Assembly (NCBI GenBank): GCA_018970465.1
Contig: JAGWWI010000001.1
Span: 3,430-67,429, forward strand
DNA from: Patescibacteria group bacterium
GTDB lineage: Bacteria > Patescibacteriota > Minisyncoccia > Phycocordibacterales > Phycocordibacteraceae
Reading direction: 5' to 3'
DNA: 64,000 nt
Shown here: positions 4,045 through 51,195 of the stretch, one piece after another
How the letters are laid out: the number at the start of each line of letters is the position of its first letter
How positions within the stretch are numbered: position 1 is the first letter of the stretch
Program-made: the position numbers and the translations under genes
The notes under the pieces: model-generated
Databases searched by the model: none
What the model saw: only the letters and a program-made list of their open reading frames with translations
Told to the model about the DNA's origin: nothing

Positions 4045-4386
4045 TCACGCACGGTGAAACCTTTTGATCGGCCCATCATAGGCGGCCAAGAAGGCTTCCA
4101 TGTCGAACGGCGGCTCCGGCCCTCCAGGCGTACTCTTGTGGTGCCGACAGAGCTTGTAGAGCAGGTCGGCATGGGTGAGGTTGGGGAACAGGTGCTCGAA
4201 GATGTGCATGAAGTTGAGCACGCCGACCATCCACACGGCCATACTAAGCTCTCCTTCGCGGTTATGGCGCTCGTAGTGCGCGCCGACGTGTTCGCGGAAG
4301 TGGGCGATAAGCTGGTCGGCCCCGCGCTGCTCGGCGATCAAGCGGCACCATTCCGCGTGAACAGCTACCGCTCTGTGTTCGTTCAT
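4045..4386 (-). CDS. Hypothetical protein (113 aa, His-rich).
   Basis: Frame-consistent ORF with GC3-rich codon usage. An SD GAAGGGA lies 8 nt upstream, and a TTGCGC-17-TATAAG promoter is on the minus strand at about 4400..4440. No family was recognised. Confidence 0.55.
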   Translation of the reverse strand: MNEHRAVAVHAEWCRLIAEQRGADQLIAHFREHVGAHYERHNREGELSMAVWMVGVLNFMHIFEHLFPNLTHADLLYKLCRHHKSTPGGPEPPFDMEAFLAAYDGPIKRFHRA

Positions 4387-10434: not shown

Positions 10435-11126
10435 ACGACACTACTATCGCGGTGCGAGACGGGAGCGAGATGCGCGCGTACGTCGCGCGCCCGGACGACG
10501 CGCCGGAGAAGGGGATCATCGTGCTCCAAGAAGCCTTCGGCGTCACCGACTATATCCGGCGCATGGCAGACCGCTTCGCCGAGCGCGGATTCCTCGCCGT
10601 CGCGCCCGAGCTCTTCCACCGCACGGCGCCGGCGGGCACCGAGCTCTCCTATACCGACTATCCGAGTGTTGCGCCGCATATGCAGGCCCTAACTCCCGAC
10701 GGGCTCGCGGCGGATCTCAAAGCTTGCTACGACTGGCTCCTCGCAGAGGGTGTCCCGACGGAGAAGGTTGCCGCGATCGGCTTCTGCATGGGCGGGCGGG
10801 CGGCCTTCCTCGCGAACGAGACGCTGCCACTTGCCGCGTCGGTCTCCTTTTATGGCGGCGGCATCGCCGACCAACTGTTGGATAGGGTGAGCGATCTCTC
10901 AGGGCCCCAGCTCCTCTTCTGGGGCGGGGAGGATGCGAACATTCCGCAGGAGAAGACAGATGCGGTTGCCGCCGCGCTCCGCGCGGCGGGTAAGACCTTT
11001 ACCGAAAAGACGTTCCCGGGCGCGGGCCACGCCTTCGCCCGCGACGTGGGCGACCACTACGACCCGGCTGCCGCGGCGGAGGCATGGGCCATGACCGACG
11101 CCTTCCTCGCCGAGCATCTCGGCTAG
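10431..11126 (+). CDS. Dienelactone hydrolase family protein (carboxymethylenebutenolidase-like).
   Basis: Nucleophile motif GFCMGG, and a C-terminal His in GAGHAF. The gene overlaps the ZIP gene by ATGA. Confidence 0.88.
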   Translation: MNDTTIAVRDGSEMRAYVARPDDAPEKGIIVLQEAFGVTDYIRRMADRFAERGFLAVAPELFHRTAPAGTELSYTDYPSVAPHMQALTPDGLAADLKACYDWLLAEGVPTEKVAAIGFCMGGRAAFLANETLPLAASVSFYGGGIADQLLDRVSDLSGPQLLFWGGEDANIPQEKTDAVAAALRAAGKTFTEKTFPGAGHAFARDVGDHYDPAAAAEAWAMTDAFLAEHLG

Positions 11127-11178
11127 GCTGTCCACACGGGCGCTCCGCGCCGCCCTCCCGCTTGATACAATCAAGCGC

Positions 11179-11548: not shown

Positions 11549-11779
11549 ATGATCGATCCCGAGCTCGCCGCTAAGCTCGACGAGATAGAGAAGGTCGCTC
11601 GCGCCGCCTACGAGGCGGCCGAGAAGGCGCGTAAATACCTCTTTTGGACCGGTGTCGCGACTATCGTCGTAATCGTCGTGCCGCTGATCGGCCTCGCGTT
11701 CGCGATTCCAGCATTCCTCACTAACTACGGCAATCCGCTCCAGCAGGAGACGAAGACCCTCAATTCGCTCGGCTACTAG
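11549..11779 (+). CDS. Small hypothetical membrane protein (76 aa).
   Basis: Amphipathic N-terminus plus one TM helix. The stop overlaps the dedA stop region. Confidence 0.45.
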   Translation: MIDPELAAKLDEIEKVARAAYEAAEKARKYLFWTGVATIVVIVVPLIGLAFAIPAFLTNYGNPLQQETKTLNSLGY

Positions 11780-12393
11780 AGCGCGCGGCGCCCGCGCACG
11801 ATATTGAGCGCGATAGGGAGGAACGAGACGACAATGATCCCGAGCGAGATCGGGAGTACGTAGTGCTGGATGCCCGGCACTGCCGTGCCGAGGAAGTAGC
11901 CCAAGGACACGACGCCCGCGCCCCAGATAATCCCCCCGAGCATGTTGTAGGAGAGGAATGTCGCGTAGCGCATCCGCGCGACGCCCGCCAAGACGGGCGC
12001 CAGGGTGCGCACGATCGGCACGAAGCGCGCGAGGAGCACGGCGCGCGGGCCGTACGTCGTATAGAAGCGCTCGGTGCGCTCCAAGTACTCGCGCTTGAAG
12101 AGGCGCGAGTCGGGCCGCTTGAAGAGCGCGCTGCCGACCCGCCGGCCGAACCAATAGCCGACCGTATCGCCGAGGATAGCGGCGAGCGCGACGACGGTCG
12201 CGAGCGGGAGATACCGCAAGAGCCCGCTCCCCGCGAGGAGGCCTGCAGCGAAGAGGAGCGAGTCGCCGGGGAGGAATATGCCGATCAGGAGCCCGCTCTC
12301 GGCGAAGACGAGGAGGGCGACGCCCGCGTATCCGCCCGCGCGCACGATCGCGAGGGGGTCCAAGTGCGCGCACGCGAGCAAGAAGTTCTCCAT
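11776..12393 (-). CDS. DedA/VTT-domain family membrane protein.
   Basis: The DedA core GLLIGIFLPGDSLLFAAG ... GRRVGSALFKRP ... RFVPIVRTLAPVLAG matches the family. Confidence 0.88.
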   Translation of the reverse strand: MENFLLACAHLDPLAIVRAGGYAGVALLVFAESGLLIGIFLPGDSLLFAAGLLAGSGLLRYLPLATVVALAAILGDTVGYWFGRRVGSALFKRPDSRLFKREYLERTERFYTTYGPRAVLLARFVPIVRTLAPVLAGVARMRYATFLSYNMLGGIIWGAGVVSLGYFLGTAVPGIQHYVLPISLGIIVVSFLPIALNIVRGRRAL

Positions 12394-12632
12394 GTGGCAC
12401 CCTCTATAACATCGCTTCTTCCTCCCTCGACCTCCCGAACAGCGCCCTCCAGCACTCGAGCATCACGGTCAACGGCACGCTCTTCAATCTCGGCGACTCC
12501 CACAGCATCACCGCCGCCTCCTCGACCCTGCTCGGGGACGCCAACACCTTCTCGGGCGCGAACGCCTTCACGACGGGCCTCACGGTCAACTCTTCGGGAG
12601 CAAATCCGACTATTAATAACACCACGAGCGGC

Positions 12633-15600
12633 GTGGGCGTCATTCTGCGCGGCATAAGCAGCGGCACCACCGGGCAACTGCGCATCGTCCCCAACGGTGG
12701 CGCATGGGCCGATAGCCAAGAAACGACCTATTTCCAAATCACCAACTCATCCAACAACAACGCGTCCTTCCAAGGGGGGACCTATGGCGCTGACACGCAG
12801 CTTAATCGGCTCCAATTCAATGCCTCATCGACGCAGGTTACTGACTACGCATTCGGCTCGACACCGGTCCCCAACTCGGTTTTCGGTGTCGTTTCCTCAA
12901 GTACCGTCAAGACGCTCTTCGCAGTGAAGAATACCGGCGGCTCGCCAAGCGGAGACTATCTGCAAATCTCTTCAAGCGCAGGCGCGGGCGACCTGCTTAA
13001 GGTCACGGGGGCAGGCCTCGTCGGCCTCGGCACCACCTCGCCCTCGACGACCCTCTCTGTCGGAGGAAGCGGATATATCACCGGCGGTCTTGGTGTCGGT
13101 GTCCTCAACACGGCTGCAGGAACCCTCACCACCTCAGGGAACGCGACGATCGGCGGCACGCTCGCGGCTGGCGCCGCCACCACCACCGATCTGGCGATTA
13201 CGCATCTCGCGAATGCGCTTCTTGCGGCGAACGCCGCAGGGTCCGTCGTCGCGACTACTTCGATAGGCGCCAATCTCCTGACAGGCTCTCTCGGTTCCAT
13301 CAACGGCAGCACATTCAACGCTGGTGCTTCGATCACCATCACCGCGGCCTCTTCCACGCTCCTCGCGAATAACAACACCTGGAGCGGCATCAACACGTTC
13401 ACAAACGCCTCTTCGAACTTCGCCGGCACCTGGCAGGGATACAGTCCGTCGGCCTTCGCCACCTTTAGCTATCCGTTCCCGGCGAACGCCACGACCACGC
13501 TTCTGAGCCTGAGCGGAGGGTTTACGGCGTATGCCTCCTCGACCATTGGTAAGGGAGGAGTCAATGGTCTTACTGTCAACGGGAACGCTACTACGACCGG
13601 CACCGCCTACTTTGGCGGGAATGTCGGAATCGCCTCGACCTCGCCGGAGTACCCGCTTTCGGTAGGGAACATTATCGGAATCGATGCGAGCGGAAACATC
13701 CACTTCGCGACGACCACGGAAATCAGTTATCCCGTAAGCCCGGGGAATTCGGCGCTTGATATCGTGGCGCAGAATGATACGTATCACGACAACCTCATCT
13801 CACTCGAAAACGACTCGATCCTTGCGAGCAACGGCCAGTGCGGCAATGATGCGCTCCGGTTCCGTGACAGCGTCGGGCATGTGGAGCGGGGCGCGATAGG
13901 GTATAGCAGCGTCAAGACCGGGTGCACGGCCGGATATAACCCAGACTATCTCTACGCCGAGATAGGGAATATCAACTCCGCAGATCCTGACGACACGAGC
14001 TTCGCCATCATCAACACGCACGGCCCGGGAGCGCTCAACCTTCCCGGGACCTCCTACAAAGTTCTCGACGTGCAGGGCAGCACGGGGAATTTGTCGCTCA
14101 ACGATACCAGCGGGAACTCGCACTTCTATCTCAACGCATCGAACGGTCATATCGGCATCGGAACGACGACGCCCGATGAGGCGCTCGTCGTGAACGACAC
14201 GATACAGGCCGGTAATACGACTCAGAACGGCAACCTCTACTTCGGCGGTTCCACCATCGCGCTCAAGTCGGCGTATTCGTCGAACATTCTAGCGATTTAT
14301 ACCGCCGGCAAAGAAGCCGCTCGATTCGACGGTAATGGGCGATTCGCGGTTGGGACCAGCTCGCCCTTCGCGCAACTTGCGGCATCCTCGACCTCCGTGT
14401 ACCCGACCTTTATTGCTGACCAGCATGGCTCGGCCCCGGTGGCTCTGTTCCTCGGCGGCAACGTCGGCATCGGCACCGCTTCTCCTAATACGAAACTGGA
14501 AGTGGATGGGAATGTAATCTTCAATCCGAACGCCATCGGAGGCGGCGGCCCCAACACCAACTCGGTTAACCTTATCGGCAATACGAATACAACCGCATTC
14601 CGTGCGACCTACAACAGCGTCGGCGCCCTCTTCTTGGGCCATAACTCCTCGAATGCCGTCATCGGTACCGATGGCACCGACCTGGCATTCCGAACCAACA
14701 TCGCGAGCGGCGACCTCACGAGCGGCTCCGAACTCATGCGCATCACCGCAAGCGGCAACGTCGGCATCGGGACGACGAGTCCGAGTTCGATGCTGACCGT
14801 GGGTACTGAAGGGACGACGCAAGCAATCTCCATCTCAGGCAATGCCGCGAGCCTATACACCGGTCGTCCGACCATAGATACCGCGCAGCTGAAGCTCGGT
14901 TCGGTCACTAGTTCGCAAGGCGGCGGCATCGAGTTCCAGGTGTCCTCGGCCAATAACGGCTACGGGTGGAAGATCGCCGCTCCCAACGTGACCAGCGGCA
15001 ACAGCAACCAGAGTCTGCTGTTCCTGGATCGCTCCAATTCTGCGACGTGGTCAGAAAAGATGAGGATCGACGAAAACGGCAACGTCGGCATCGGGACGAC
15101 GAGTCCGGGCTACCCGCTTGATGTTAAGGCGTCGGGCGCAATAGCGGCACGCCTATACGGCAATGCTGGCGCATCGAGCGACAACGTACAAGTGCGATTC
15201 GCGGGCCAAAAGGACGGAGAGTTGTGGGCGCTGGGATCGGATGTTACGGGAGGCGGATCAACGGGAGACTTTGAATTTTATAACTTAGGGAACGCGGGCG
15301 GGTCCATGGGTACGAAGCTGACCATTCTGGGGTCTGGCAACGTCGGTATCGGGACGACGAGTCCGGCCTACAAACTCACTGTCGACAACGCCGGATCGGC
15401 CGGCGGCGTTGCAGGCTTCGAGAATTCCTCGGGCGAGTGCGTCATAAATCCGACATCAAGCTCGATCAACTGCTCGTCCGACCAGCGGCTCAAGACCAAT
15501 TTCGTCTCCATCAGCACTACAACCGCCCTGGCCGATATCGAGGCGCTCTCCCCGACCTATTTCAACTGGAAAACGGAGGCCTCGGGCGCGCCGGAGCACG

Positions 15601-16106
15601 CGGGCTTCATCGCGCAGGAGGTGCAGCCGATCTTACCCGACCTTGTCTCGCAGGGCTCGAACGGCTACTACATGCTGGACTACACGGGCTTCGTGCCGTA
15701 CTTGACCGCGGGGATCCAGGCGCTCGCATACGAGATGCAGGGGCAAAGCGCCGATATAGCCCGTATACAGGGCCTTACGGGCCTCATGGCCACCACGACC
15801 CTCCCCGAGTCGCCCGCCTCGGGCGTCGCGGCCGAGTGCGTCGCGGGCGACACGAAGCTCCGCCGCCGGAGGAAGCGGGCGGACGGGAGCTACGCATACG
15901 ACGAGACCGACATCGCCGATATCGCGCCGGGCGACGAAGTCCTCTCGCTCGACGAGGCGACCGGCTGCGCGGTATACCGCCGCGTGAACGCGCTCCTGCC
16001 GCGCGGCGTGCAGGAGGTATACGAGCTCCGCACCAAGGGCGGCCGCGTGGTCCGAACCACCGCGAACCACCCATACCTTGTCCGCCTTTCCGATATAAGC
16101 GTATGA
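12633..16106 (+). CDS. Giant phage-tail-fibre-like protein: Gly/Thr/Ser-rich beta-helix with (G)NVGIGTTSP fibre repeats, a peptidase-S74 intramolecular-chaperone auto-processing domain, and an intein N-terminal (Hint) segment at the extreme C-terminus. The 5' end is uncertain: the track start is a GTG, and frame 0 is open and coding-like back to about 12394.
   Basis: The motif M/L-R-I-x-x-x-G-N-V-G-I-G-T-T-S-P recurs at least 5 times. S74 chaperone signatures are present: CSSDQRLKTN...HAGFIAQEVQPILPDLV...YMLDYTGFVPYLTAGIQALAYEM. Intein block A (CVAGDTKL) and block B (TANHPYLV) then follow. The stop overlaps the ATG of the next gene (ATGA). Confidence 0.85.
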   Translation: MGVILRGISSGTTGQLRIVPNGGAWADSQETTYFQITNSSNNNASFQGGTYGADTQLNRLQFNASSTQVTDYAFGSTPVPNSVFGVVSSSTVKTLFAVKNTGGSPSGDYLQISSSAGAGDLLKVTGAGLVGLGTTSPSTTLSVGGSGYITGGLGVGVLNTAAGTLTTSGNATIGGTLAAGAATTTDLAITHLANALLAANAAGSVVATTSIGANLLTGSLGSINGSTFNAGASITITAASSTLLANNNTWSGINTFTNASSNFAGTWQGYSPSAFATFSYPFPANATTTLLSLSGGFTAYASSTIGKGGVNGLTVNGNATTTGTAYFGGNVGIASTSPEYPLSVGNIIGIDASGNIHFATTTEISYPVSPGNSALDIVAQNDTYHDNLISLENDSILASNGQCGNDALRFRDSVGHVERGAIGYSSVKTGCTAGYNPDYLYAEIGNINSADPDDTSFAIINTHGPGALNLPGTSYKVLDVQGSTGNLSLNDTSGNSHFYLNASNGHIGIGTTTPDEALVVNDTIQAGNTTQNGNLYFGGSTIALKSAYSSNILAIYTAGKEAARFDGNGRFAVGTSSPFAQLAASSTSVYPTFIADQHGSAPVALFLGGNVGIGTASPNTKLEVDGNVIFNPNAIGGGGPNTNSVNLIGNTNTTAFRATYNSVGALFLGHNSSNAVIGTDGTDLAFRTNIASGDLTSGSELMRITASGNVGIGTTSPSSMLTVGTEGTTQAISISGNAASLYTGRPTIDTAQLKLGSVTSSQGGGIEFQVSSANNGYGWKIAAPNVTSGNSNQSLLFLDRSNSATWSEKMRIDENGNVGIGTTSPGYPLDVKASGAIAARLYGNAGASSDNVQVRFAGQKDGELWALGSDVTGGGSTGDFEFYNLGNAGGSMGTKLTILGSGNVGIGTTSPAYKLTVDNAGSAGGVAGFENSSGECVINPTSSSINCSSDQRLKTNFVSISTTTALADIEALSPTYFNWKTEASGAPEHAGFIAQEVQPILPDLVSQGSNGYYMLDYTGFVPYLTAGIQALAYEMQGQSADIARIQGLTGLMATTTLPESPASGVAAECVAGDTKLRRRRKRADGSYAYDETDIADIAPGDEVLSLDEATGCAVYRRVNALLPRGVQEVYELRTKGGRVVRTTANHPYLVRLSDISV
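15477..15800 (+). other. Peptidase S74 / intramolecular chaperone auto-processing domain (tail-fibre C-terminal chaperone), within the CDS.
   Basis: SDQRLK (containing the presumptive autocleavage Ser) ... GFIAQEV ... LDY ... L.AGIQAL. This is the classical endosialidase / tail-spike chaperone pattern. Confidence 0.75.
15837..16103 (+). other. Intein N-terminal splicing segment (Hint blocks A and B) at the C-terminus of the fibre protein.
   Basis: Cys1 codon at 15837 (…GVAAE|CVAGDTKL). Then ...GDEVLSLDEATG... and block B TTANHPYLV. The segment is about 89 aa and the ORF terminates right after it. Confidence 0.75.
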
Positions 16107-17425
16107 AACATACATTGACCGATGTAAAGAAGCGCGTCACTCCGAGGAATAAATCTGTCGCACAGGTGCGCGGGACGCGGGCGAAAAAGGCGGGAAGTCG
16201 TGAGATTCCAGAGCCGGGAATTCGTGATACGGCTCGCCGCATCGAATCGCGGCGAGCCGACATGTCCGCGCGGATCCGCTGCCCGTATTGCGGCTCCCCG
16301 GAATTCGTGAAGCGCGGCATCCGCAGGAAGAAGCATGAGGCCGTCCAGCTCTATCTCTGCCGCGCGGAGGCCTGCGGCCGCACCTTCACGAGCGAGCGCG
16401 TGAAGGGGAAGCGCTACCCCCTCCGGGTCATCATCGAAGGCATGAGCTACTACAATCTCGGCTGCACGCTCGAGGAGACCTGCCGGCTCTTGAAGAAAAA
16501 GTTCGCCGACGACGCGGGCGTGCTTGCGCCCACGCCCGAGACCCTCGCCGCGTGGGTAGAGCAGTACAAGCCGCTCTGCCGCTACGAGCGCATGCGCCCC
16601 TACGCGGTGAAGCTCTTGCGCCCCGCCGAGACGGTCGAGGTCGTGACCATGGCGCACCGCCAGCTCTATCGCTTCCGCTATCATCGCGCCAAGATGTTCC
16701 TCTCGCTCGAGGAGTTCGGCAACCGGCGCCTCGAACGGCTGAAGCAGTACCTCGACGCGGTGTCGAGCGAGACCCCGCACCAGTACTTCGACGAGGGCGC
16801 GCGCATGAGCGAGGTGAGGAGCCGGTTCGACGCGGCCGACATGATCGTGAAGGGGAAGCACAACTTCGCGAATGACCTCGCCGCGTTCGTCCTGCCCGCA
16901 GTCGAGCGCAACCTCGACCGCCACGAGGCGCTCCAGCGCTTCATGATCGCGAACGACAGCGTGACGGTGGCGACCGAGGTGCCGGTATATATCCGCCGCG
17001 AGGACGTCGAGCACCTCGAGAACGAGCTCAAGTTCAAGATCACGGACGACGGCCGCGTCTCGATGAAGGGGGACAAACAGCCGCGGCAGCTGCCGCAGCT
17101 CCTCACGGGCCATATCGACCTCGTGCAAGTGAGGAACGGCATGGTCCACATCCTCGACTACAAGCCCGGCGCTTCCAAAGAGCGGCCCGTCGAGCAGCTC
17201 ACTTGGTACGCGCTCGCACTCTCCCGGCTCACGGGGCTCCGGCTCTTCGAGTTCAAGTGCGCGTGGTTCGACGATCAGGATTACTACGAGTTCTATCCGC
17301 TCCATGTGGTCAAAAAGCTGCGCCCGGCTTCCGGGAAGAAGCCGCGGCGGCGCTATGTCCACTTCAGGGACGGCACGACGGCCGAGGTGCCGCGCGAGCA
17401 TGCCGCCAAGCCGGTTATCGTATGA
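16103..17425 (+). CDS. Zn-ribbon/HTH (IS1595/InsA-like N-domain) fused to a RecB/Cas4-like PD-(D/E)XK nuclease. A candidate free-standing homing endonuclease inside the split intein.
   Basis: N-terminus RCPYCGSPEFVKRG...YLCRAEACGRTFTSE (CxxC...CxxxxC) followed by an HTH-like YPLRVIIEGMSYYNLGCTLEET. C-terminal motifs are ATEVPVY (E), GHIDLVQVRNGMVHILDYKPG (motif II, D...D.K) and EQLTWYALAL (QxxxY). ATGA overlaps on both sides. Confidence 0.75.
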   Translation: MKHTLTDVKKRVTPRNKSVAQVRGTRAKKAGSREIPEPGIRDTARRIESRRADMSARIRCPYCGSPEFVKRGIRRKKHEAVQLYLCRAEACGRTFTSERVKGKRYPLRVIIEGMSYYNLGCTLEETCRLLKKKFADDAGVLAPTPETLAAWVEQYKPLCRYERMRPYAVKLLRPAETVEVVTMAHRQLYRFRYHRAKMFLSLEEFGNRRLERLKQYLDAVSSETPHQYFDEGARMSEVRSRFDAADMIVKGKHNFANDLAAFVLPAVERNLDRHEALQRFMIANDSVTVATEVPVYIRREDVEHLENELKFKITDDGRVSMKGDKQPRQLPQLLTGHIDLVQVRNGMVHILDYKPGASKERPVEQLTWYALALSRLTGLRLFEFKCAWFDDQDYYEFYPLHVVKKLRPASGKKPRRRYVHFRDGTTAEVPREHAAKPVIV

Positions 17426-17901
17426 TTATGAATTACTACAAGTCCAAGTATGAGCGGCGGCAGTTCGCGCCGAAGAAGCCGGTGAAGACCTTCCGCGACC
17501 TCGATATCTACCAGAAGACGCTCGAGTGCGCGGTCATCGTGATGAAGAACGTGCGCCCGAAGCTGGCTGCGCTCAAGTATCCGTTCCTGGACGGCATGAC
17601 CGATTGCGCCATGAACGTACCGCTTGCGATAGGCGAGGCGCATTCGATCCGCTTCGCGGACTTCGCGAAGGGACTCGGCCACCTGGAGCGCGCCATGAGC
17701 GGCTGCAACAAGATGATCATCTACCTCGAGCATGCGAAGGGGATGCACGGCGCGAAGGCCGATCCCGACAGCATCATCGACGAGCTCGTCGTGCGGTATG
17801 CCGAGAGCCGTACGAAGAGCTTCCGGCTCGAGCAGTCGTGGAAGAAGTGGCGGCAGGCGGACGCCGCGCTTCCCGCCGCTGCCCGCGCCCCGCGCCTATG
17901 A
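17422..17901 (+). CDS. Four-helix-bundle protein (TIGR02436-like; 23S rRNA intervening-sequence protein / DGR Avd family).
   Basis: The sequence FRDLDIYQKTLECAVIV...NVPLAIGEAHS...GLGHLERAMSGCNKMIIYLEHAKGM fits the FRDL..WQKA / NIAEG / GS..E four-helix pattern. About 160 aa, with ATGA overlaps on both sides. Confidence 0.75.
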   Translation: MIMNYYKSKYERRQFAPKKPVKTFRDLDIYQKTLECAVIVMKNVRPKLAALKYPFLDGMTDCAMNVPLAIGEAHSIRFADFAKGLGHLERAMSGCNKMIIYLEHAKGMHGAKADPDSIIDELVVRYAESRTKSFRLEQSWKKWRQADAALPAAARAPRL

Positions 17902-18149
17902 ACATGACCATGCCGCTCAAAAACCTTTCCGGAGATCGCGCGCGCTGGCGCAAGGTATCCGAGCTCGCGCCGGGCATGCTACTTGCCGTCGCCGCTGACG
18001 AGGTCCTCGCGCGCGCGACGGACGGCGTTGAGGACGCCGTGCTCTGGGACGACATCGTCTCGATCGCGTCGGTCGGGCGCGAGGAGGTGTTCGACATTGA
18101 GGTCGCCGGCACGCGCAACTTCGTCGGCAACGGCATCTACGCCCACAAC
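17898..18149 (+). other. Intein C-terminal splicing segment (blocks F and G), within the CDS.
   Basis: Block F VFDIEVAGTRNF, block G NGIYAHN, and a +1 Thr nucleophile. Confidence 0.7.
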
Positions 18150-19292
18150 ACGTATCTGCCGTCCGCCACCACGCTGCTCACGGTGGGCGGCGCGGCGGTG
18201 GACGCGGCCGCGTACATCGTCCCGGATGAGCCGGTCGTCGTCGAGTCCGGTGATGCGACGACGACCTTGAGTGCGCCGTCCGATGCGCTCGCGCCGGGCG
18301 GCGGCGTCGACCTCTATACGCTCGGACTCCACGACCTGGCGGCAGTCAACGCGCTCGCCGCCGAGGTCGACGCCAATGCCTCCACCACCGCTGCTCAGGG
18401 TACGAGTATCGCTACGCTCCGGTCCTCCCTCGCCGCCCTCCAGGGCGTGAACCTCGACCTCGCGGCCGTCGCGTCCTCCACCCTCGACATCGCGAGCACG
18501 ACAACGCCCTTGGACGCCGCGCAGGCGTTCGCGCAAGGGTTCTTCGGGAGCCTCTTTGCGCATATCACGAGCTGGCTCGCGAATAGCGGGAATGGGATAG
18601 GCAACCTCTTCGCCGCCGTGATCCACACAAACGAGCTCTGCGTCAAGGACGCGGCGGGCGCGGACGTCTGCATCACGGGCGACCAGCTCGCCGCGGCGGT
18701 CTCGGGCGCGGGCGCCGCCGCGCTCCCCGGCGTCACGACCGCCGACACGACCGTCACGAGCCAGAGCTCGACTGGCGCCGCGAGCACCGCCTCCTCCACC
18801 CCCTCCACCTCCACCGACGTCACTCCCCCCGTCGTCACCCTCCTCGGCTCCGCAGCGATGAACATCACCCAGGGCGCCGCCTTCACCGACCCTGGTGCGA
18901 CCGCTACAGACGACACCGACGGCGACCTGACCGCCAAGATCGTCGTCTCGGGCGCCGTCGACCCCGCAACCCCCGGCCTCTACACCCTCACCTACTCAGC
19001 GACCGACGCCGCCGGCAATACCGGCACCGCCTCCCGCGTGGTCACCGTCACCGCTGCAGGCTCCTCCACCCCAGACACCACCGCCTCCTCCACGCCTTCT
19101 GCAAGCACGAGCGGATCCGTCGCCTCCTCCAACACCGCCCCGGCCGACACCTCGACCGCTCCTCCGACGACGAGCACCACTGATACGACGACCGCACCCA
19201 CCCCGACCTCCGCAACCACCGATACCACTACGACGAGTGCAGCGGCGACGACCGATACCACCGCGAGCGCCCCGGCCGCAAGCGGCAATTAA
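17898..19292 (+). CDS. Protein beginning with an intein C-terminal splicing segment (blocks F and G, ...GIYAHN|T). It is followed by an extein with a bacterial Ig-like (DUF5011/Big-like) domain and a Thr/Ser/Pro-rich tail.
   Basis: N-terminus ...VLWDDIVSIASVGREEVFDIEVAGTRNFVGNGIYAHN then T(+1)YLPS.... Downstream, PPVVTLLGSAAMNITQGAAFTDPGATATDDTDGDLTAKIVVSGAVDPATPGLYTLTYSATDAAGNTGTASRVVTV is an Ig-like domain pattern. The gene is in the same frame as the fibre gene. The start is an internal ATG of track ORF 17526..19292. Confidence 0.8.
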   Translation: MNMTMPLKNLSGDRARWRKVSELAPGMLLAVAADEVLARATDGVEDAVLWDDIVSIASVGREEVFDIEVAGTRNFVGNGIYAHNTYLPSATTLLTVGGAAVDAAAYIVPDEPVVVESGDATTTLSAPSDALAPGGGVDLYTLGLHDLAAVNALAAEVDANASTTAAQGTSIATLRSSLAALQGVNLDLAAVASSTLDIASTTTPLDAAQAFAQGFFGSLFAHITSWLANSGNGIGNLFAAVIHTNELCVKDAAGADVCITGDQLAAAVSGAGAAALPGVTTADTTVTSQSSTGAASTASSTPSTSTDVTPPVVTLLGSAAMNITQGAAFTDPGATATDDTDGDLTAKIVVSGAVDPATPGLYTLTYSATDAAGNTGTASRVVTVTAAGSSTPDTTASSTPSASTSGSVASSNTAPADTSTAPPTTSTTDTTTAPTPTSATTDTTTTSAAATTDTTASAPAASGN

Positions 19293-19573
19293 CTAGGTTA
19301 TGCGGCGACTCTGCACAGAGGAGAAGTTCCTGGATGGGATTGAAGAAAGAAGCTGGGTTGCTAAAATGGCGATGGTTGGTGACTTGATGGGGGCGGGCGA
19401 GAGTATCCACACCATAGCTCTCGTTTGGGGTCGTGCGGTCGCGTCTTCCAAAAAAATCTGGTGTGTGCGTAGAAGACGCCAGCGGCGCGCACGCCCCTCA
19501 GCGGTTTCGTCCGTTGCCCCGTCAGTTCGTCAACCAGCCTCTGCAAGACCGTCGGTGATCCAGATTTCGCACT

Positions 19574-20116
19574 ATGCTTAGCCGGTACGACATACGAGGC
19601 AGGGTGGGCGTTTTTATCGACGCGGCGAATATTTTTTACTCGCAGCGCACGCTCGGGTGGCGTATCGACTTTGGCAGGCTCGCCGGGTATCTGAAAGGGG
19701 AGATCGATATAAAGGGCATGTACTATTACACCGGCAAAGTCGGCGCGCTCGCAAAGCAAGTATCCTTTCTCCAGAAGCTGCAATCTCTCGGCTACGAGGT
19801 AACTGCGAAAGAGGTGAAGTTCATAAAAACCGGCGGCGGTGCCCAGATCCCCAAGGGCAATCTTGATGTGGAACTCGCGCTCGATGCCTTCAGGCTCAAA
19901 GAGAATTTCGACGTATTTTTGCTGTTCTCGGGTGATTCAGACTTCGCGTATCTCATCGACCTTCTGAAACAGGCAGGGAAGCGCGTGTTCGTCCTCTCGA
20001 CGCGCGGCCATGTCTCGAAGGAACTGCTTGATCGCGCGAAGTATATAGATCTGCGGCGGCTCAGGGCCTTCGCGGAAAAGATCAAGGGGCCGGACGAGCC
20101 GGCCCCTGAGGTCTGA
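19574..20116 (+). CDS. NYN-domain (LabA/DUF88-like) putative RNase.
   Basis: GVFIDAANIFYS (N-terminal Asp), DVELALDAF, and LLFSGDSDFAYLIDLLKQAGKRVFV: the NYN/PIN-like acidic residues in the canonical order. Confidence 0.75.
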   Translation: MLSRYDIRGRVGVFIDAANIFYSQRTLGWRIDFGRLAGYLKGEIDIKGMYYYTGKVGALAKQVSFLQKLQSLGYEVTAKEVKFIKTGGGAQIPKGNLDVELALDAFRLKENFDVFLLFSGDSDFAYLIDLLKQAGKRVFVLSTRGHVSKELLDRAKYIDLRRLRAFAEKIKGPDEPAPEV

Positions 20117-20130
20117 CACAGCCACTATAT

Positions 20131-20586
20131 ATGACCCATTCTAAACGTCAAGTGAATAGCGGCCGGCTCGTGAGGCAGAGCCTCGCGGCGAAGCGTTTCT
20201 CCCTTTTTCTCCCTTTCTTCCTCTTCCTCCCGCTGCTCCCCCTTTCTACCCTTTTCCTTTTCCCCGCCGAAGCGCACGCCTCCGCCTTCACCCGCCCGCC
20301 GAACAATTTGGGCCTCGTCGGCTACTGGAATTTCGACGAAGGCTCGGGCACCGTCGCGCACGACCGCTCGGGGCAGGGCAACAACGGCACGCTCGTCAAT
20401 GCGCCGACGTGGGTGAAAGGGAAGGTGAACGGGGCGCTGTCGTTCAATGGGACGAATCAGTGTGTCGATGCGGGCAATGCCTCGTCGCTCAATGTGAGCG
20501 CCGCCACCGGCATGGCAGCCTGCGCTTGGTTATATCTGAATTCATACAGCTCCAGTACAGCTCTACAAGCTCGGGCATTGATATGA
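20131..20586 (+). pseudogene. Truncated LamG/ConA-like surface-protein gene. It keeps the N-terminal signal/TM and the first about 60% of one LamG domain, and is disrupted downstream by an AT-rich insertion carrying hicBA.
   Basis: It starts MTHSKRQVNSG..., like the intact paralog at 21840. It then reads AHASAFTRPPNNLGLVGYWNFDEGSG...ALSFNGTNQ, diverging at ...LNSY into an AT-rich sequence and a stop. The 5' DNA is nearly identical to the start of the 21840 gene. Confidence 0.6.
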
Positions 20587-20639
20587 GAAAAGTGGAAAGT
20601 AAGAAGTATAAAGAAGAAAGTATGGAGAAAAAAGAATCG

Positions 20640-20843
20640 CTACAAATCCCTCGACGAGAGTCCGCTCTGTTTCAAAATCGATCGCAGCGTGCTCTCGGGC
20701 AGATCTCCCGTGTGCATCGGGACGGTGACGCGCCGCTTGTCGTGCTCCCGATAGTAGATGCGGTGACTGCCTTTTTGCCTTTGGAATATGTATCCTTCCC
20801 GCTCAAGCGCGCGGCACAAAGTGCGGGCCGAAACGCCGGCCAT
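20640..20843 (-). CDS. hicA: HicA-family mRNA interferase toxin (type II TA).
   Basis: The 67-aa product LCRALEREGYIFQRQKGSHRIYYREHDKRRVTVPMHTGDLPESTLRSILKQSGL matches the YcfA/HicA consensus (GSH..., tvPhH...l..gtlrsIlkq). Confidence 0.8.
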   Translation of the reverse strand: MAGVSARTLCRALEREGYIFQRQKGSHRIYYREHDKRRVTVPMHTGDLPESTLRSILKQSGLSSRDL

Positions 20844-20846
20844 ATA

Positions 20847-21080
20847 CTATCGGGCAATTCCCACCTCGATGCTTCCCAGGAGCGTCGTGTCGGCTTCGGG
20901 CGCTTTTTCACCCGCTGCCTCCATGTCTTCCAAATACAGTTCGATCGCCTCGCGCGCCATCGCGCGCGCCTCGTTCATGTCGGCGCCGTAGGTGACGCAG
21001 CCAGGAAGCGCAGGCACCGTAACGGTGTACCCGCCTTGCGGATCGGATTCGAAGACAAGCTGGAAGGTCTGTTTGGTCAT
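20847..21080 (-). CDS. hicB: HicB-family antitoxin (UPF0150 fold).
   Basis: The 77-aa product FQLVFESDPQGGYTVTVPALPGCVTYGADMNEARAMAREAIELYLEDM matches the HicB N-terminal domain pattern (y.v.ie...gGy.a.vP.LpGc.t.G.t.eEa...EAi). It lies immediately upstream of hicA. Confidence 0.75.
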   Translation of the reverse strand: MTKQTFQLVFESDPQGGYTVTVPALPGCVTYGADMNEARAMAREAIELYLEDMEAAGEKAPEADTTLLGSIEVGIAR

Positions 21081-21116
21081 GGCAGCAGTATAGCAAATCG
21101 TGAGGCAGTAGAAAGT

Positions 21117-21371
21117 ATGAAGTATAAAGGGCTCAAGAGAGCGCTGCTTTGCGCGTCTCCCTTTATGCTTGCTACCTTATTCTTGCTTCCTCCGCTCGCG
21201 CACGCGAGCGTCCTCACCCGCCCGGCCAACAATTTGGGCCTCGTGGGGTACTGGCAATTCAACGAAGGCTCGGGCTCGCTCGCGCACGACACCTCTGGTG
21301 CTGGCAACACGGGTACGCTCGTCGGTTCGCCGAGCTGGGTGGCGGGGAAGGTGGGCGGAGCGATAGTATGA
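21117..21371 (+). pseudogene. N-terminal fragment of a LamG-repeat surface protein (signal peptide plus about 55 aa of LamG domain), truncated where the mazF-like gene begins.
   Basis: The product MKYKGLKRALLCASPFMLATLFLLPPLAHASVLTRPANNLGLVGYWQFNEGSGSLAHDTSGAGNTGTLVGSPSWVAGKVGGAIV reaches a stop 1 nt before the MazF-like ATG. Confidence 0.55.
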
Positions 21372-21372
21372 C

Positions 21373-21816
21373 ATGAGTATGCGAAAAGATTTCGATACAT
21401 GGAATGGAGAGAAGAAGCGCATCAACGAGCACGACACGGGCGCACTCTATTTCTACGAGCGTGAGATCTGGTGGTGTTCTCTTGGAGTGAACGTGGGCTT
21501 CGAGCAGGATGGGACGAATGAGCTATTCCAGCGCCCTGTCGTGATACTGAAAAAGTACAATCCGCAGATTTTTCTCGCTCTGCCGCTCTCGACGACATCC
21601 AAGCGCGGAAGCTATTATTGGCCGGTGGGCATCGTGGACGGTGAACAAGCCGTCGCGATACTCTCGCAGTTGCGCCTTTTGGATTCTAAACGACTGACGA
21701 ATCGCATCGGCATACTCGGCAAAAAGGAATTCGATCTTCTCGTCGGGGAAACCGTCGCCGCGAATTTCCCCACCTTAAAAAGTTCTCCCCCGCCGGGAGG
21801 CGGGGGCAAGCCGTGA
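21373..21816 (+). CDS. MazF/PemK/Kid-family toxin-like endoribonuclease with no adjacent antitoxin.
   Basis: The sequence EREIWWCSLGVNVGFEQDGTNELFQRPVVIL...LALPLSTTSKRG...AVAILSQLRLLDSKRLTNRIGIL aligns with the Kid/PemK blocks GEIW.v.l....G.EQ.G.RPvlIv / vP.Ts / R..D..R. Lower GC than the flanks. Confidence 0.7.
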   Translation: MSMRKDFDTWNGEKKRINEHDTGALYFYEREIWWCSLGVNVGFEQDGTNELFQRPVVILKKYNPQIFLALPLSTTSKRGSYYWPVGIVDGEQAVAILSQLRLLDSKRLTNRIGILGKKEFDLLVGETVAANFPTLKSSPPPGGGGKP

Positions 21817-21839
21817 GGCCGTTTGTGACTAGAGTATAT

Positions 21840-24029
21840 ATGACCCATTCTGAACGTCAAGTGAATAGCGGAAAAATCACGAGGCTAAGCCTCCTGAAAC
21901 ACCTCTTTCCCCCCGTTCTTCTCGTTGCCGCCCTTTTCTTGCTGCCTGCTTCGGCGCACGCGAGCGTCCTCACCCGCCCCGCCAACAATCTCGGCCTCGT
22001 CGGCTACTGGCAGTTCAACGAAGGCTCGGGCTCGCTCGCGCATGATGTTTCGGGTAACGGTGTTGCCGGCGTAGTCGTCAATGGCCCCGCCACCTGGACG
22101 ACGGGGAAGTTTGGCAGCGCGCTGTTACTAAGCTCGGCATCCAATCAACAGGTGCAGGCAACCTCGACTAAGGCCGTTCAATTTTCTACGACGCAGTGCG
22201 CGTGGATAAAACTCAATTCATACAATGGCGGCAATTTCGCCGGAGTGGCAGGCACCGGCGCGGGCGGAACAATCCTCACGACAAGATCATCGAATGCGAC
22301 ATTCGGCGCGTCGATACAAATCGCAAATTTTCACTTGTCGGCAAACAAAGCGGTGTTTATCTACAATACAGCCGGCACTGCGGTGGGCGCGGCGGGTAAC
22401 ACGACCATCGCCCTCAATACGTGGTATTTCATATGCGGTACATTTTCATACACCGGCGGCGGCGGAAACTTCGACGGCAATTGGCAAGTCTATGTGAATG
22501 GAGTCGAAGACGATTCGAGCGCGAATAATTACCTTGCGGCTGGCGGCAATCCCAGTTTCCCCATGAACGGCACCACCTGGAACATAGCCGGTATAGATGG
22601 CGCGATCGACGACGTCCGCATCTACAACCGCGCGCTATCGGCGGCGGACGTCCTGAAGCTCTACCAGCTCGGCACGACGCAAGTGAAGGCGACCCTCGGC
22701 ACCGCGCCCATCGTCCTCACCCCCACCGCCGGCATCGGCAGCGGGCTCGTGGGGTACTGGCCATTCAACGAAGGAACGGGCAACACCACCGCCGACATTT
22801 CCGGCAACAAGAACACCGGTACGCTCGTCAATGCGCCGAGCTGGGTGAAGGGGAAGTATGGGAATGCGCTGTCGTTCAATGGGACGAATTATATTTCTCT
22901 GGGAAATGTAGCGGCACTCAGTTTCCCGAGCACCGACTTCGGCATATGCGCATGGGCCTACCCGATCGAGAACAGCAATTACAGGGAGATAGTCAACAAG
23001 GGAGATAGCGGATCTGCCAGCGGTTCGCAGTATGAAGTACTTTTGGATAACTCGGGGAAGTACGCGTTTAATGTCATGGTGGGAGGTGTTGTTGATCGGC
23101 TGGCCGATACAGCGACCGCTTCTTTAAATAAGTGGGCTTACGTATGCGGTGTTCGCCAAGGGGCGCTCAATTCGCTTTATGTAAACGGTATTTTAAGGAA
23201 TTCGGCATCTTTTAGCGGACCGCTGAACACCACATCGAACGGTGTGAGTATAGGAGCCGCGGGCAACGGAAACACAAGCCTTGCTTTTAGGGGCACCATC
23301 GACGAAGTGCGCATCTACAACAGAGCACTTTCATCAAGCGAAGTGAAGCAGCTCTATCTCGACGAGAGCGTGCAGATCGGGCACAGCAACGCGGTCGTCT
23401 CGAACGGCCTCGTGGGCTGGTGGACCATGGACGGCAATAATTTGATCCAGAACGTGAAGGATTCGAGCGGGCAGGGGAATAACGGCTCCCTCGTCGGCTT
23501 CTCCGCCACCTCCTCGGCCGAAGTCGCGGGCAAAATCGGCGGGGCTTTGAAGTTTAATGGGACGAGTCAGTATATTACTGTCCCAGACACCACCGCGTTG
23601 CGGCTGTCGGGTAATTATTCTGTATCGGTTTGGATCAGGCCCGCAGCTCTAAAAGACTACGGAAACGTGCTTTTTAAAGAATCCCTAATAAGCAATACGG
23701 GCTATGGTCTCATCACCTTCGCAAACGGCTCGTGGGGATGGCAGATCGGCAATACGCTAGATATACAAACCTCCGCCGCGTTGCTAAAGAATACTACCTG
23801 GTCTCTTCTCATCGCGACGTATGACGGAACCAACGTACGTCTCTACCAGAACGGATCGCTCCTTTCGACCACCGTGGCTTCGGCAGTGGCGAGCGATGCG
23901 ACGGCTCTCGCCCTCGGCGCTGATACTGGCGACGGGAGATATTTTAACGGCACTATCGACGACGTCCGCGTCTACAACCGCGCCCTTTCGGCGAGCGAGA
24001 TCCAGGCGCTCTATGCGGCGGGGAGGTAA
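21840..24029 (+). CDS. Secreted surface protein with three LamG/ConA-like (Laminin_G_3-type) domains.
   Basis: Signal peptide ...LLPASAHA|SV. Three repeats run from GLVGYW.FNEG.G....D.SGN.N.G.L...P.W..GK.G.AL.FNG to ...IDDVRIYNRALSAAEV/SSEV..LY. The start is an ATG 27 nt inside track ORF 21813..24029, so that it does not overlap the mazF-like stop. Confidence 0.85.
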   Translation: MTHSERQVNSGKITRLSLLKHLFPPVLLVAALFLLPASAHASVLTRPANNLGLVGYWQFNEGSGSLAHDVSGNGVAGVVVNGPATWTTGKFGSALLLSSASNQQVQATSTKAVQFSTTQCAWIKLNSYNGGNFAGVAGTGAGGTILTTRSSNATFGASIQIANFHLSANKAVFIYNTAGTAVGAAGNTTIALNTWYFICGTFSYTGGGGNFDGNWQVYVNGVEDDSSANNYLAAGGNPSFPMNGTTWNIAGIDGAIDDVRIYNRALSAADVLKLYQLGTTQVKATLGTAPIVLTPTAGIGSGLVGYWPFNEGTGNTTADISGNKNTGTLVNAPSWVKGKYGNALSFNGTNYISLGNVAALSFPSTDFGICAWAYPIENSNYREIVNKGDSGSASGSQYEVLLDNSGKYAFNVMVGGVVDRLADTATASLNKWAYVCGVRQGALNSLYVNGILRNSASFSGPLNTTSNGVSIGAAGNGNTSLAFRGTIDEVRIYNRALSSSEVKQLYLDESVQIGHSNAVVSNGLVGWWTMDGNNLIQNVKDSSGQGNNGSLVGFSATSSAEVAGKIGGALKFNGTSQYITVPDTTALRLSGNYSVSVWIRPAALKDYGNVLFKESLISNTGYGLITFANGSWGWQIGNTLDIQTSAALLKNTTWSLLIATYDGTNVRLYQNGSLLSTTVASAVASDATALALGADTGDGRYFNGTIDDVRVYNRALSASEIQALYAAGR

Positions 24030-24044
24030 TATGAAGACTGTCGT

Positions 24045-26867: not shown

Positions 26868-26868
26868 T

Positions 26869-27327
26869 ATGGGAAAGGAGTTTGACCGATGGAATGCGGA
26901 GAAAAAGAAAGCGGATCGCGAAGCGCCGCGACTATACACTGTTCGCGAGATGTGGTGGTGTCGGCTGGGCGTCAATGTGGGTACGGAACAGGACGGCAGC
27001 GGGGAGAAGTTTCTCCGGCCGGTTGTCATCCTGCGCGGATTCGCTGCCGACGCTTGTCTGGTCGTCCCGCTCACCACTTCGCAGCGCGGGCATCGCTTGC
27101 GCGTTTCCGTAGGCATTGTCGACGGGAAGCGGACGCTGGCCAACCTTTCGCAGATTCGCGTCGTCGATACTCGACGACTGGTAGAAAAGATAGGCTTCCT
27201 CGATAATGGATATTTTCGAATTGCGAAAAGCCGCTCACAGTCTCGTGTGAGCGGCCCTGCGAACATTCTCCCCTTTGCAGGGGTGAGGCCGAAGCCAACT
27301 ATGGCTCCCATCATAGGAGCGCCATAG
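26869..27327 (+). CDS. MazF/PemK/Kid-family toxin-like protein, paralog of 21373..21816, with no adjacent antitoxin.
   Basis: MGKEFDRWNAEKKKADREAPRLYTVREMWWCRLGVNVGTEQDGSGEKFLRPVVILRG...LVVPLTTSQRG...LANLSQIRVVDTRRLVEKIGFL shows the same block structure as the first copy. Its ATG lies 1 nt after the LamG gene stop. Confidence 0.7.
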   Translation: MGKEFDRWNAEKKKADREAPRLYTVREMWWCRLGVNVGTEQDGSGEKFLRPVVILRGFAADACLVVPLTTSQRGHRLRVSVGIVDGKRTLANLSQIRVVDTRRLVEKIGFLDNGYFRIAKSRSQSRVSGPANILPFAGVRPKPTMAPIIGAP

Positions 27328-27398
27328 TAAAAGTCAAGTGAATATCACCATCCCGGTCCCCGCTACCCGGCGGGCCGGTAGCGTATCATGGAGGGCAT

Positions 27399-27932
27399 AT
27401 GAAGAACTTCCTCTGGTCGCTCGCCATTATCCTTGTCGTCGCCCTCGGCATCTGGGCCGCGCTCCGCTACGGGCGCGGCGGGGCGGTCGACCTCTGGGGC
27501 GCAGGCTCCTCTGCGAGCTCGACGCCCGCGGGCGACGCGGGCACCTACACCGAAGACTCGCTCGGCTTCTCCTTCGCCGTCCCGCCCGGCATGCACACGC
27601 AAAAATTGCTCGACGACAACGGCGAGACGATCCTCGTACAGCCCGCAGGGAGCGACGACGGATTCCAGGTCTACATCACCGCCTATGGCGACGATGCGAG
27701 TTCGATCACCAAAGCGAACATCGAGAAGCAGGCAGGTATGACGGTCGCGAATGATTCGCCGATCACTGTTGCGAATGTCGCACGAGGCCTCGAGTTCACC
27801 TCCACGGGCGACAATCCGCCCACTCTCCAGGCCTGGTTCGTCTACAACGGCAACCTCTACCAGGCGCAGACGTGGGCGAGCGATCCCGCGCTCATGCAGC
27901 AGATCTTGGGCTCGTGGAAGTTCACGCAGTGA
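27399..27932 (+). CDS. Hypothetical secreted or membrane-anchored protein (177 aa).
   Basis: N-terminal TM helix, SD GGAGGG 4 nt upstream, clean ORF. Confidence 0.6.
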   Translation: MKNFLWSLAIILVVALGIWAALRYGRGGAVDLWGAGSSASSTPAGDAGTYTEDSLGFSFAVPPGMHTQKLLDDNGETILVQPAGSDDGFQVYITAYGDDASSITKANIEKQAGMTVANDSPITVANVARGLEFTSTGDNPPTLQAWFVYNGNLYQAQTWASDPALMQQILGSWKFTQ

Positions 27933-27948
27933 CGCGCGCGGCCTGGCG

Positions 27949-28434
27949 CTAGAACTTTGCGAGGCGGCGGGCGTGGCGCGGGAGGCCCGAGAAGGGGGTC
28001 GCGACGAAGATGCGGACGGCCTCGAGCGCTTCTGCATCGGTGAGGAAGCGCGTGCCGAGGGAGAGGATGTTCGCGTCGTTGTGCGCCCGCGCGAGGCGGA
28101 CGAGGTCGTAGCCGTCACCTCCTGCGGTAGTGCCCTCGATCTCGATCGCTCCCGTCGCGCTCCGGGGGCCATAGAAGACGGCGGCGCGCGCGCCTTTGAC
28201 GCGGTTCGCCGCCATCGCCTCGCCCTCGCCCGAGCCGCCGATCGCGACGCCGAGCGCGCCCGGCTCCGCGGCGACGCGCTCGGCGAGCGGGGTGATGAAG
28301 TCCGGATAATCGTCCGCGGGGTCAAGCGCCGTCGCGCCGAGGTCGAGCGCTTCGCGCCCCTCGGCCGCGAGCGCGTCGAGGAGGGAACGCTTCAAGTCGA
28401 AGCCCGCGTGGTCGCTCGCCAAATAGAGGCGCAT
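27949..28434 (-). CDS. rpiB: Ribose-5-phosphate isomerase B (RpiB/LacAB family).
   Basis: MRLYLASDHAGFDLKRSLLDAL...GVAIGGSGEGEAMAANRVKGARAA...ANILSLGTRF matches the conserved RpiB blocks, including the Cys-less LacAB-type active region. Confidence 0.88.
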   Translation of the reverse strand: MRLYLASDHAGFDLKRSLLDALAAEGREALDLGATALDPADDYPDFITPLAERVAAEPGALGVAIGGSGEGEAMAANRVKGARAAVFYGPRSATGAIEIEGTTAGGDGYDLVRLARAHNDANILSLGTRFLTDAEALEAVRIFVATPFSGLPRHARRLAKF

Positions 28435-28435
28435 G

Positions 28436-28675
28436 CTAACGCGGGTGGGCTGCCGTCGAGCTCGCCTCGGCCGACCCGGGCGCCTTCGGGGTCGGCGCGG
28501 GCGACGCGGCGGCAGCGCCGATAACCCCGGCAGGGAAGAAGAGCTTCACGACCGGCCCGGTCGCGAGGATAAGCAGGAGAATGAGGATGATAAGCACGGC
28601 GCCGAAGGTTGCGCGCAGGCTCCGCAGCTCGCGCTCGACCGCGTTCAATTTCTTCAAGACAGGATCCGAATCCAT
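28436..28675 (-). CDS. Small hypothetical membrane protein (79 aa), directly upstream of rpiB.
   Basis: N-terminal amphipathic segment plus one TM helix. Its stop lies 1 nt from the rpiB start. Confidence 0.45.
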   Translation of the reverse strand: MDSDPVLKKLNAVERELRSLRATFGAVLIILILLLILATGPVVKLFFPAGVIGAAAASPAPTPKAPGSAEASSTAAHPR

Positions 28676-28724
28676 TGCTGCCAGTATACCAAGGCCGATA
28701 CGGGTGCGCGGCCGTTTCTCACAG

Positions 28725-29006: not shown

Positions 29007-29017
29007 ATTCGGAAAGA

Positions 29018-51121: not shown

Positions 51122-51195
51122 GCCGCCTTAGCTCAGCTGGTTAGAGCAGCCGATTTGTAATCGGCAGGTCCTCGGTTCGAATCCGAGAGGCGGCT
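51122..51195 (+). tRNA. tRNA-Thr (anticodon UGU).
   Basis: Cloverleaf: acceptor GCCGCCT/AGGCGGC, D-arm GCTC-AGCTGGTTA-GAGC, anticodon stem GCCGA/TCGGC with loop TTTGTAA, short variable loop AGGTC, T-arm CTCGG-TTCGAAT-CCGAG, discriminator T. CCA is not encoded. Confidence 0.85.

Follow-up and report, generated by a model that had tools for sequence, protein, structure and literature searches.

Introduction

5'-truncated pseudogenes are of a familiar kind: homology stops abruptly at a junction, the gene is without its start codon, promoter and signal peptide, and an internal codon is rescued as the start by the open reading frame (ORF) caller. The subject of this analysis is a fibre gene that shares these traits, the rescued codon being the GTG at 12633 of a 64,000-nucleotide (nt) stretch of DNA, hereafter the window (contig JAGWWI010000001.1, positions 3,430 to 67,429 of the forward strand; assembly GCA_018970465.1), from a member of the Patescibacteria that is kin to Paceibacteria/Kaiserbacteria and has 65% GC in this DNA. 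It differs from the usual truncated gene in that its 3.7 kb are so far without stops or frameshifts, and in an unusually tight endpoint, 2 nt from the ATG of the divergent gene dedA, where ex-coding DNA apparently gives dedA its -10 box. The reading that we favour, with a probability of roughly 0.7, is that the fibre ORF is a 5'-truncated gene whose real beginning was lost at this junction.

Two groups of proteins resemble the fibre ORF. Surface fibres of the candidate phyla radiation (CPR; P0016, P0011, P0028, L005-L010, L016-L020) carry the same GNVGIGTTSP-type repeats, the same GVGVILRG…YFQITN…NRLQFNASSTQ domain (52-68% identity) and S74; whereas they open with a Sec signal peptide or with a helix-turn-helix (HTH) plus transmembrane (TM) anchor, the window ORF has neither. 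The homologues used here were drawn from metagenome-assembled genomes (MAGs) of Saccharibacteria, Kaiserbacteria, Paceibacterota and Peribacteria. Phage tail fibres or endosialidases with S74 (e.g., the tail fibres of cyanophages S-B28 and P-SSP2) are distantly similar at ~25% identity, limited to the GNVGIGT repeats and the S74 chaperone (residues ~534-1115); the N-terminal half of the fibre has no phage match, and the genomic context is cellular (dedA, rpiB, GAPDH, transketolase), not prophage.

Results

Behind a TAG stop, the frame of 12633..16106 stays open from 12180 onwards and holds no ATG, GTG or TTG in the 151 codons ahead of 12633, in full agreement with the initial annotation, which had reported no canonical start between ~12390 and the GTG. 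The only near-cognate codons between dedA and 12633 are ATC (12411, 12462 and 12507), CTG (12528) and ATT (12612), and the first ATG in frame is at 14736, i.e., there is none for 2.1 kb. Taken alone, the absence of a start codon is statistically unremarkable, since start-type codons make up only 2.5% of the fibre codons and the probability of finding none in 79 codons is 0.13. The GC content at codon positions 1/2/3 is 0.44/0.55/0.86 in 12402-12632, versus 0.54/0.53/0.75 in the gene body; the high value at the third position (GC3) had also been noted in the initial annotation, together with a fibre-like translation, and it holds on formal scoring. GC3 cannot distinguish the coding strand at 12404-12694, however, because the antisense shadow ORF there is itself at GC3 0.85. 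The part of the open frame at 12180-12393 is an Arg-rich antisense shadow of dedA.

It is homology, not GC3, that decides, and by homology 12396-12632 is genuine surviving fibre coding sequence. The stretch consists of a conserved module, GTLYNIASSSLDLPNSALQHSSITVNGTLFNLGDSHSITAASSTLLGDANTFSGANAF, followed by the beginning of the NPTINN..GVGVILRG domain, and the module is common to other Patescibacteria surface proteins (…IASSSLDLPNSALQNSSITVNGT.FNLGD…). The 74 residues encoded by 12411-12632 match P0016 with 77% identity over 53 amino acids (aa) (E 2e-21; module E-values were computed against a 36-sequence database), and protein identity to the modules of other fibres is 75% (P0011), 65% (P0028) and 82% (P0026). 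L020 is 79% identical over 58 aa: 15 of the codons are the same, 31 differ synonymously and 12 non-synonymously. L020 carries NNGTIQSIASSSLDLPNSALQNSSITVNGTLFNLGD and P0016 carries AGNLYQIASSSLDLPN; alignment of NNGTIQSIASSSLDLPN (L020) and AGNLYQIASSSLDLPN (P0016) with CGTLYNIASSSLDLPN of the window places the first homologous codon at 12396. The N-terminal module is 75-79% identical between otherwise different fibre proteins, far above the flanking sequence.

We next to this compared the surroundings of the GTG at 12633. The domain NPTINN..GVGVILRG…QLRIVPNGGAW…YFQITN…NRLQFNASSTQ was found at 52-68% identity in seven GTDB genomes, and because its first residue lies 14 or more positions ahead of Val-12633, the GTG is, by this alignment, an internal Val codon that was picked solely as the first canonical start in frame. 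None of the aligned fibres begins at the equivalent of GTG 12633: P0001, P0002, L005-L010 and L016 continue upstream of GVGVILRG with homologous sequence. How far the complete homologues reach was seen in two forms. P0016, P0011, P0028 and L020 have a classical Sec-type signal peptide 120-300 aa upstream of the IASSSLDLPN module (signal peptides were called by eye, without a predictor); in L005, L006, L008, L010 and L016-L018 the frame extends 660-2500 aa further upstream and begins with an excisionase-like HTH and a TM segment. The fibre ORF contains neither a signal peptide nor an HTH plus TM anchor, and tblastn with full L005, L006, L008 and L010, and with the signal-peptide regions of L020, P0016, P0011 and P0028, found no fibre N-terminal part in the 64 kb. 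Among database matches to the first 400 aa of the fibre, the best reaches only 56% identity. The fibre-rich contigs L014 and L015 were considered as cases of natural fragmentation or module-first starts and were set aside as uninformative, since they have many short ORFs and an error-laden look; L015 is a nanopore-labelled contig (contig_197350_np1212).

The HTH and TM opening of the larger homologues is an observation in its own right. Giant CPR fibre proteins (1200 to >4200 aa, from several lineages) start with an excisionase/MerR-like HTH of the motif …A..LSGY..DYL.RLCR.GK…G….WYV….L..F…, and then a TM segment, an unexpected way for an extracellular fibre to begin; the start positions are L005 6230-, L006 7529-, L008 2396-, L010 7124-, L016 1899-, L017 7433- and L018 7733-.

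The dedA homology is present from residue 1, in accord with the start at 12393 on the opposite strand that had been given earlier, and the dedA protein is 100% identical to a MAG protein ("Patescibacteria group bacterium") that occurs on four contigs. Three other MAG assemblies carry the locus on contigs L001-L003 (GCA_028866105.1, GCA_028865925.1 and GCA_028864825.1), and they repeat the dedA-fibre junction base for base at 99.9-100% identity to the window. L001 represents a distinguishable strain, with three single-nucleotide differences and a replaced intergenic segment at 11112-11178. Since this identical junction recurs in the three other assemblies, a frameshift or chimera at the junction is very unlikely. 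The homologies of dedA and fibre abut within 2 nt, so that no shared k-mer would be available for a false join. Repeats of 12360-12640 within the window, inverted or direct, were limited to chance 12-19-mers; Pfam scans of ~30 ORFs showed no recombinase or transposase; no tRNA or att site lies near the junction, the sole tRNA being at 51122; an Rfam search of 11700-13000 gave nothing at E<=1; and a scan of 12394-12633 for the sigma-70 consensus gave nothing. Two sources of a hidden N-terminus were tried and rejected: the frameshifted alternatives (the +2 frame reads MWHPL* and the +1 frame is a Pro/Ser/Arg-rich shadow without N-terminal features), and an N-terminus supplied by trans-splicing from an intein C-terminal half (IntC) ahead of the ORF, as the frame there is the antisense shadow of dedA and lacks an HN motif. 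As a separate matter, the segment replaced in L001 lies between the DLH and holin genes, where L001, otherwise 99.9% identical, has an unrelated 144-nt sequence (4188-4331) in a strain-level replacement.

Four relatives have a dedA 73-77% identical to that of the window, and on the holin/DLH/Zip/thioredoxin side they are syntenic with it. The divergent neighbour of dedA in these relatives is purC, followed by an operon of DUF8128/TraG-like, DnaJ, DUF5663, FKBP and TGT genes, or that operon directly, with intergenic gaps of 24-107 nt. Neither purC nor the genes of the DUF8128/TraG-like operon were found in the window; the window's own MAGs carry the DUF8128 operon on another contig (L036-L038), behind an 867-aa fibre 3' part and an ORF of 178 aa. 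Because dedA of the relatives adjoins the DUF8128/TraG-like operon, the fibre gene is, by synteny, an intruder beside dedA.

We examined the initiation signals of the window for what they might say about both genes. A TAnnnT element stands 5-10 nt upstream of the ATG (mode 7 nt) in 17 of 39 confident ATG genes, including those at 5908, 5948, 9715, 10431, 11179, 37730, 40441 and 51871, versus ~0.9 expected by chance; a Shine-Dalgarno (SD) core was present in only 6 of the 39. A box ~7 nt before the ATG in about half of the genes, with few SD cores, suggests that leaderless mRNAs are widespread or even predominant in this Patescibacterium; the literature gave no direct statement on leaderless mRNAs in Patescibacteria. 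Leaderless initiation normally requires AUG. The dedA transcript is probably leaderless or near-leaderless as well. In the orthologues a TATACT stands 7-8 nt ahead of the ATG; the window gene has TATAGA at 9 nt, without the final T, and we infer that this -10-like element of dedA is ex-coding fibre DNA. The GTG at 12633 is preceded neither by an SD, the closest GGAG being 33 nt off, nor by a TAnnnT box at a leaderless distance. A GGGAG precedes ATT 12612 by 11 nt (an SD would lie at 5-9 nt), the other near-cognate candidates being without any signal, and an AT-rich patch, TATTAAT, made up of the rare A/T-ending codons ACT-ATT-AAT, lies 16 nt before GTG 12633; the GGGAG and the patch may be regarded as weak leads for residual fibre expression.

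Table 1. Features of the dedA-fibre locus, in window coordinates.
Feature	Position	Strand	Remarks
dedA, VTT-domain membrane protein, intact	11776..12393	-	Pfam VTT_dom 3.7e-22; 73-77% identical to syntenic orthologues
Junction	12394..12395	.	Only 2 nt separate the dedA start codon from the first fibre-homologous codon (12396)
Startless fibre-coding remnant	12396..12632	+	Homology to P0016/P0011/P0028/L020 reaches codon GGC 12396; GC3 0.86; L020 differences mostly synonymous
-10-like box TATAGA	12403..12408	-	9 nt upstream of the dedA ATG; made of fibre codons CTC-TAT (Leu-Tyr)
Antisense shadow ORF	12404..12694	-	Called as a 79-aa gene in MAG records L001-L003; no Pfam match; GC3 inherited from fibre frame
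GTG taken as start by ORF callers and MAG annotation	12633..12635	+	Internal Val of conserved GVGVILRG; aligned in P0001, P0002, L016
Fibre body: N-terminal conserved domain, GNVGIGTTSP-type repeats, Peptidase_S74 chaperone	12636..15836	+	Pfam
149-nt segment where other assemblies break	15217..15365	+	L001 ends at 15365; L002/L003 end at 15223
IntN, N-terminal half of split intein, 89 aa (CVAGDTKL…TTANHPYLV)	15837..16106	+	End of fibre ORF
Zn-ribbon + PD-(D/E)XK nuclease ORF, free-standing	16103..17425	+	PDDEXK_1 1.6e-5, 25.4 bits (cut-off 22); ATGA overlap with fibre stop
Second intervening ORF, 159 aa	17422..17901	+	ATGA overlaps on both sides; no family match
IntC, 84 aa (…VFDIEVAGTRNFVGNGIYAHN|T), + C-extein with Bact_surface_Ig-like domain	17898..19292	+	PF16403 1.8e-24

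Discussion

The order of events that would best fit these data is as follows. The whole or part of a fibre gene would have come between dedA and its ancestral neighbour, the DUF8128/TraG-like operon, and the endpoint of the insertion or of a deletion would then have fallen 2 nt from the dedA start codon. Such an event would have removed the promoter and start codon of the fibre gene, its export signal peptide or its anchor, with ~120 or more residues of the N-terminus, and would at the same time have taken away the original upstream region of dedA, for which former fibre codons would now supply the -10-like box TATAGA. A leaderless-type -10-like box supplied in this way would explain why so tight a junction was tolerated. 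We infer that translation has no credible place to start on the remnant and that any product of it would lack an export signal; most likely it is a recent, not yet decayed pseudogene, or else a non-secreted leftover. No new biology of translation initiation is indicated; this is an ordinary truncated gene of a known kind.

Of the origins proposed for the missing start in the initial annotation, a 5' truncation is the one that the homologues favour, for they extend upstream of the GTG and carry signal peptides or HTH plus TM anchors there. The lack of an evident signal peptide was also correctly seen, and it applies to the whole window as well as to the ORF. It had been taken to fit a phage-derived structural protein; that interpretation is not upheld, since the signal peptide is missing because the gene was, in our reading, beheaded, and its absence is hence no evidence for a phage virion protein. 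The remark that dedA and the fibre gene leave essentially no intergenic promoter space stands as far as the 2 nt are concerned, but this poses no difficulty for dedA, as about half of the genes in the window have a -10 box only 5-10 nt before their ATG.

Several observations weigh against a simple truncation. The fibre frame runs for 1237 codons (3.7 kb) with no stop or frameshift and with the S74 motif SDQRLK intact, and the N-terminal module differs from the family consensus at only ~2 unique positions, so that signs of decay are missing from both; an intact frame of this length means that the event was recent or that some selection persists, and either would fit the available fibre copies, all of which are 99.9-100% identical. 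The orderly four-ORF 3' end looks like a unit that is expressed now or was so recently. The TATAGA of dedA lacks the conserved final T of TAnnnT and TATACT, which weakens the part of the argument that concerns a leaderless promoter. Finally, the continuation of the ORF 3' of 15365 is not confirmed by other assemblies.

An intact frame would be expected if the fibre ORF still worked from a weak or non-canonical start (GTG 12633, ATT 12612, CTG 12528 or an ATC), its signal-less product being released by lysis, exported by some other route or assembled with a partner. The intact S74 chaperone motif, the GGGAG before the ATT, the unusual AT-rich patch before the GTG and the coupling of the downstream ORFs through ATGA overlaps speak for this; we nevertheless think it unlikely, since every candidate start, including the CTG and ATT put forward earlier, for which no positive support was obtained, falls within a module or domain that no complete homologue has at its N-terminus. 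The GTG has no SD at a usable distance, the dominant mode of initiation appears to be at a leaderless ATG while the first ATG in frame comes only after 2.1 kb, and the product would be without the signal peptide or anchor that is present in all complete relatives. Frame intactness despite a missing start would also suit a silent donor cassette, which by gene conversion with an expressed fibre paralogue would generate modular surface variation. Here the other fibre 3' part, on L036/L038, agrees with the window completely over 15217-15365, diverges at once and is 78-84% identical later, as would paralogous or allelic fibre segments with a recently shared tract, and the N-terminal module (75-79%) is far better conserved than its surroundings; but an expressed full-length partner did not turn up, the first 400 aa having nothing closer than the 56% match noted above, the identical 149 nt may be a mere assembly-graph overlap of strain variants, and no junction repeat, inverted repeat or recombinase was found in the 64 kb (the recombinase among the scanned ORFs). 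We regard such a cassette as improbable, and as a less likely explanation than a gene that still works.

The remaining explanations were given very little weight. Fibre genes are repetitive and other assemblies break within this one, at 15223 and 15365, as might be seen if position 12394 were an assembly chimera, or hid a sequencing indel, in a true gene with a normal 5' end; but four assemblies (the window and L001-L003) share the junction exactly, with L001 a separate strain, no k-mer is shared where the two homologies abut, and neither alternative frame gives a plausible N-terminus. The sequencing or assembly frameshift that had been listed among the initial options is for these reasons highly improbable. 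Startless 3' fibre segments occur in the Mu Gin, P1 Cin and R64 shufflon switches, and are typical of invertible systems, so that the stretch might be the promoterless arm of such a switch with a constant 5' part located elsewhere; yet 12360-12640 is not repeated in the window beyond the chance 12-19-mers, no recombinase is among the scanned ORFs and no 5' fibre part is in the window, and this we consider the most improbable of all.

The truncation is chiefly of value for annotation: the GTG 12633 start in the MAG records, and the 79-aa antisense gene called there, which is probably spurious, would both be artefacts of a beheaded gene, and such artefacts arise here in a GC-rich genome that apparently uses leaderless mRNAs. 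The locus would also show how closely a rearrangement can abut a leaderless gene and be tolerated. If the silent cassette were true instead, a Patescibacterium with a reduced genome would have surface-fibre variation like that of pilS or MgPa, with a junction that made fibre codons into the dedA promoter.

The 3' part of the fibre gene and neighbouring features

The Peptidase_S74 match (PF13884; 9.8e-16, 58.2 bits, cut-off 22) lies near the C-terminus at residues 1029-1085, i.e., within the part for which two continuations exist. Positions 1-149 of both L036 and L038 are identical to window 15217-15365 and then diverge; to the right of 15365 one finds either the S74/intein part of the window or the part in L036, where the fibre 3' part beyond the shared tract is 78-84% identical to the window further on. 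From 18593 to 30116 the window is collinear with contig 1 of the same MAG, and a look-up with the nuclease ORF found no contig bearing 15366-18592 in the other MAGs. Synteny favours the order dedA, beheaded fibre, L036 part, 178-aa ORF, DUF8128, which would mean a fibre-bearing segment of ~6 kb between two ancestral neighbours; comparison of the GC3 of the two continuations was ambiguous. The join in the window may represent paralogues that share a tract, a recombinant or a chimera, and the gene model 12633..16106 should be flagged as a possible union of two fibre genes at 15217-15365. The 5' junction is unaffected by which 3' continuation holds. The fibre copy of L036 has a related C-terminal region without an intein.

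Fractured genes, in which the halves of a split intein gene are separated, have been described with DNA-metabolism enzymes as hosts (Dassa et al. 2009, PMC2677866). At its 3' end the fibre gene is, from its sequence, a fractured gene of this kind, with a predicted free-standing nuclease between the halves. As in the published cases, the N-terminal intein half (IntN), the intervening nuclease ORFs, and IntC with the C-extein lie on one strand; the differences are that the host here is a surface fibre, that there are two intervening ORFs, and that the nuclease is of the Zn-ribbon plus PD-(D/E)XK type. The four ORFs (fibre/IntN, nuclease, 159-aa ORF and IntC/C-extein) are linked by ATGA overlaps. 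IntN itself spans 15837-16103 and IntC 17898-18149, with HN at 18144-18149 and AHN|T at 18141-18152, and the concatenate of IntN and IntC matches Intein_splicing (PF14890) with 54.4 bits (cut-off 35.8) over 10-155/155. The key intein residues are present: C at 15837, TTANH, HN and the +1 nucleophile T.

Downstream, window 19574-27300 forms an island of lower GC with an NYN-domain gene, a HicA/HicB pair (20640-21080, minus strand) and PemK-like toxins. The island also holds two large paralogous LamG_3/sialidase-like surface proteins whose 5' regions are duplicated (repeats 20126/21835 and 20243/21169/21925), and in the ORF at 24045-26867 an N-terminal match to the 23S_rRNA_IVP four-helix bundle is fused to LamG repeats.

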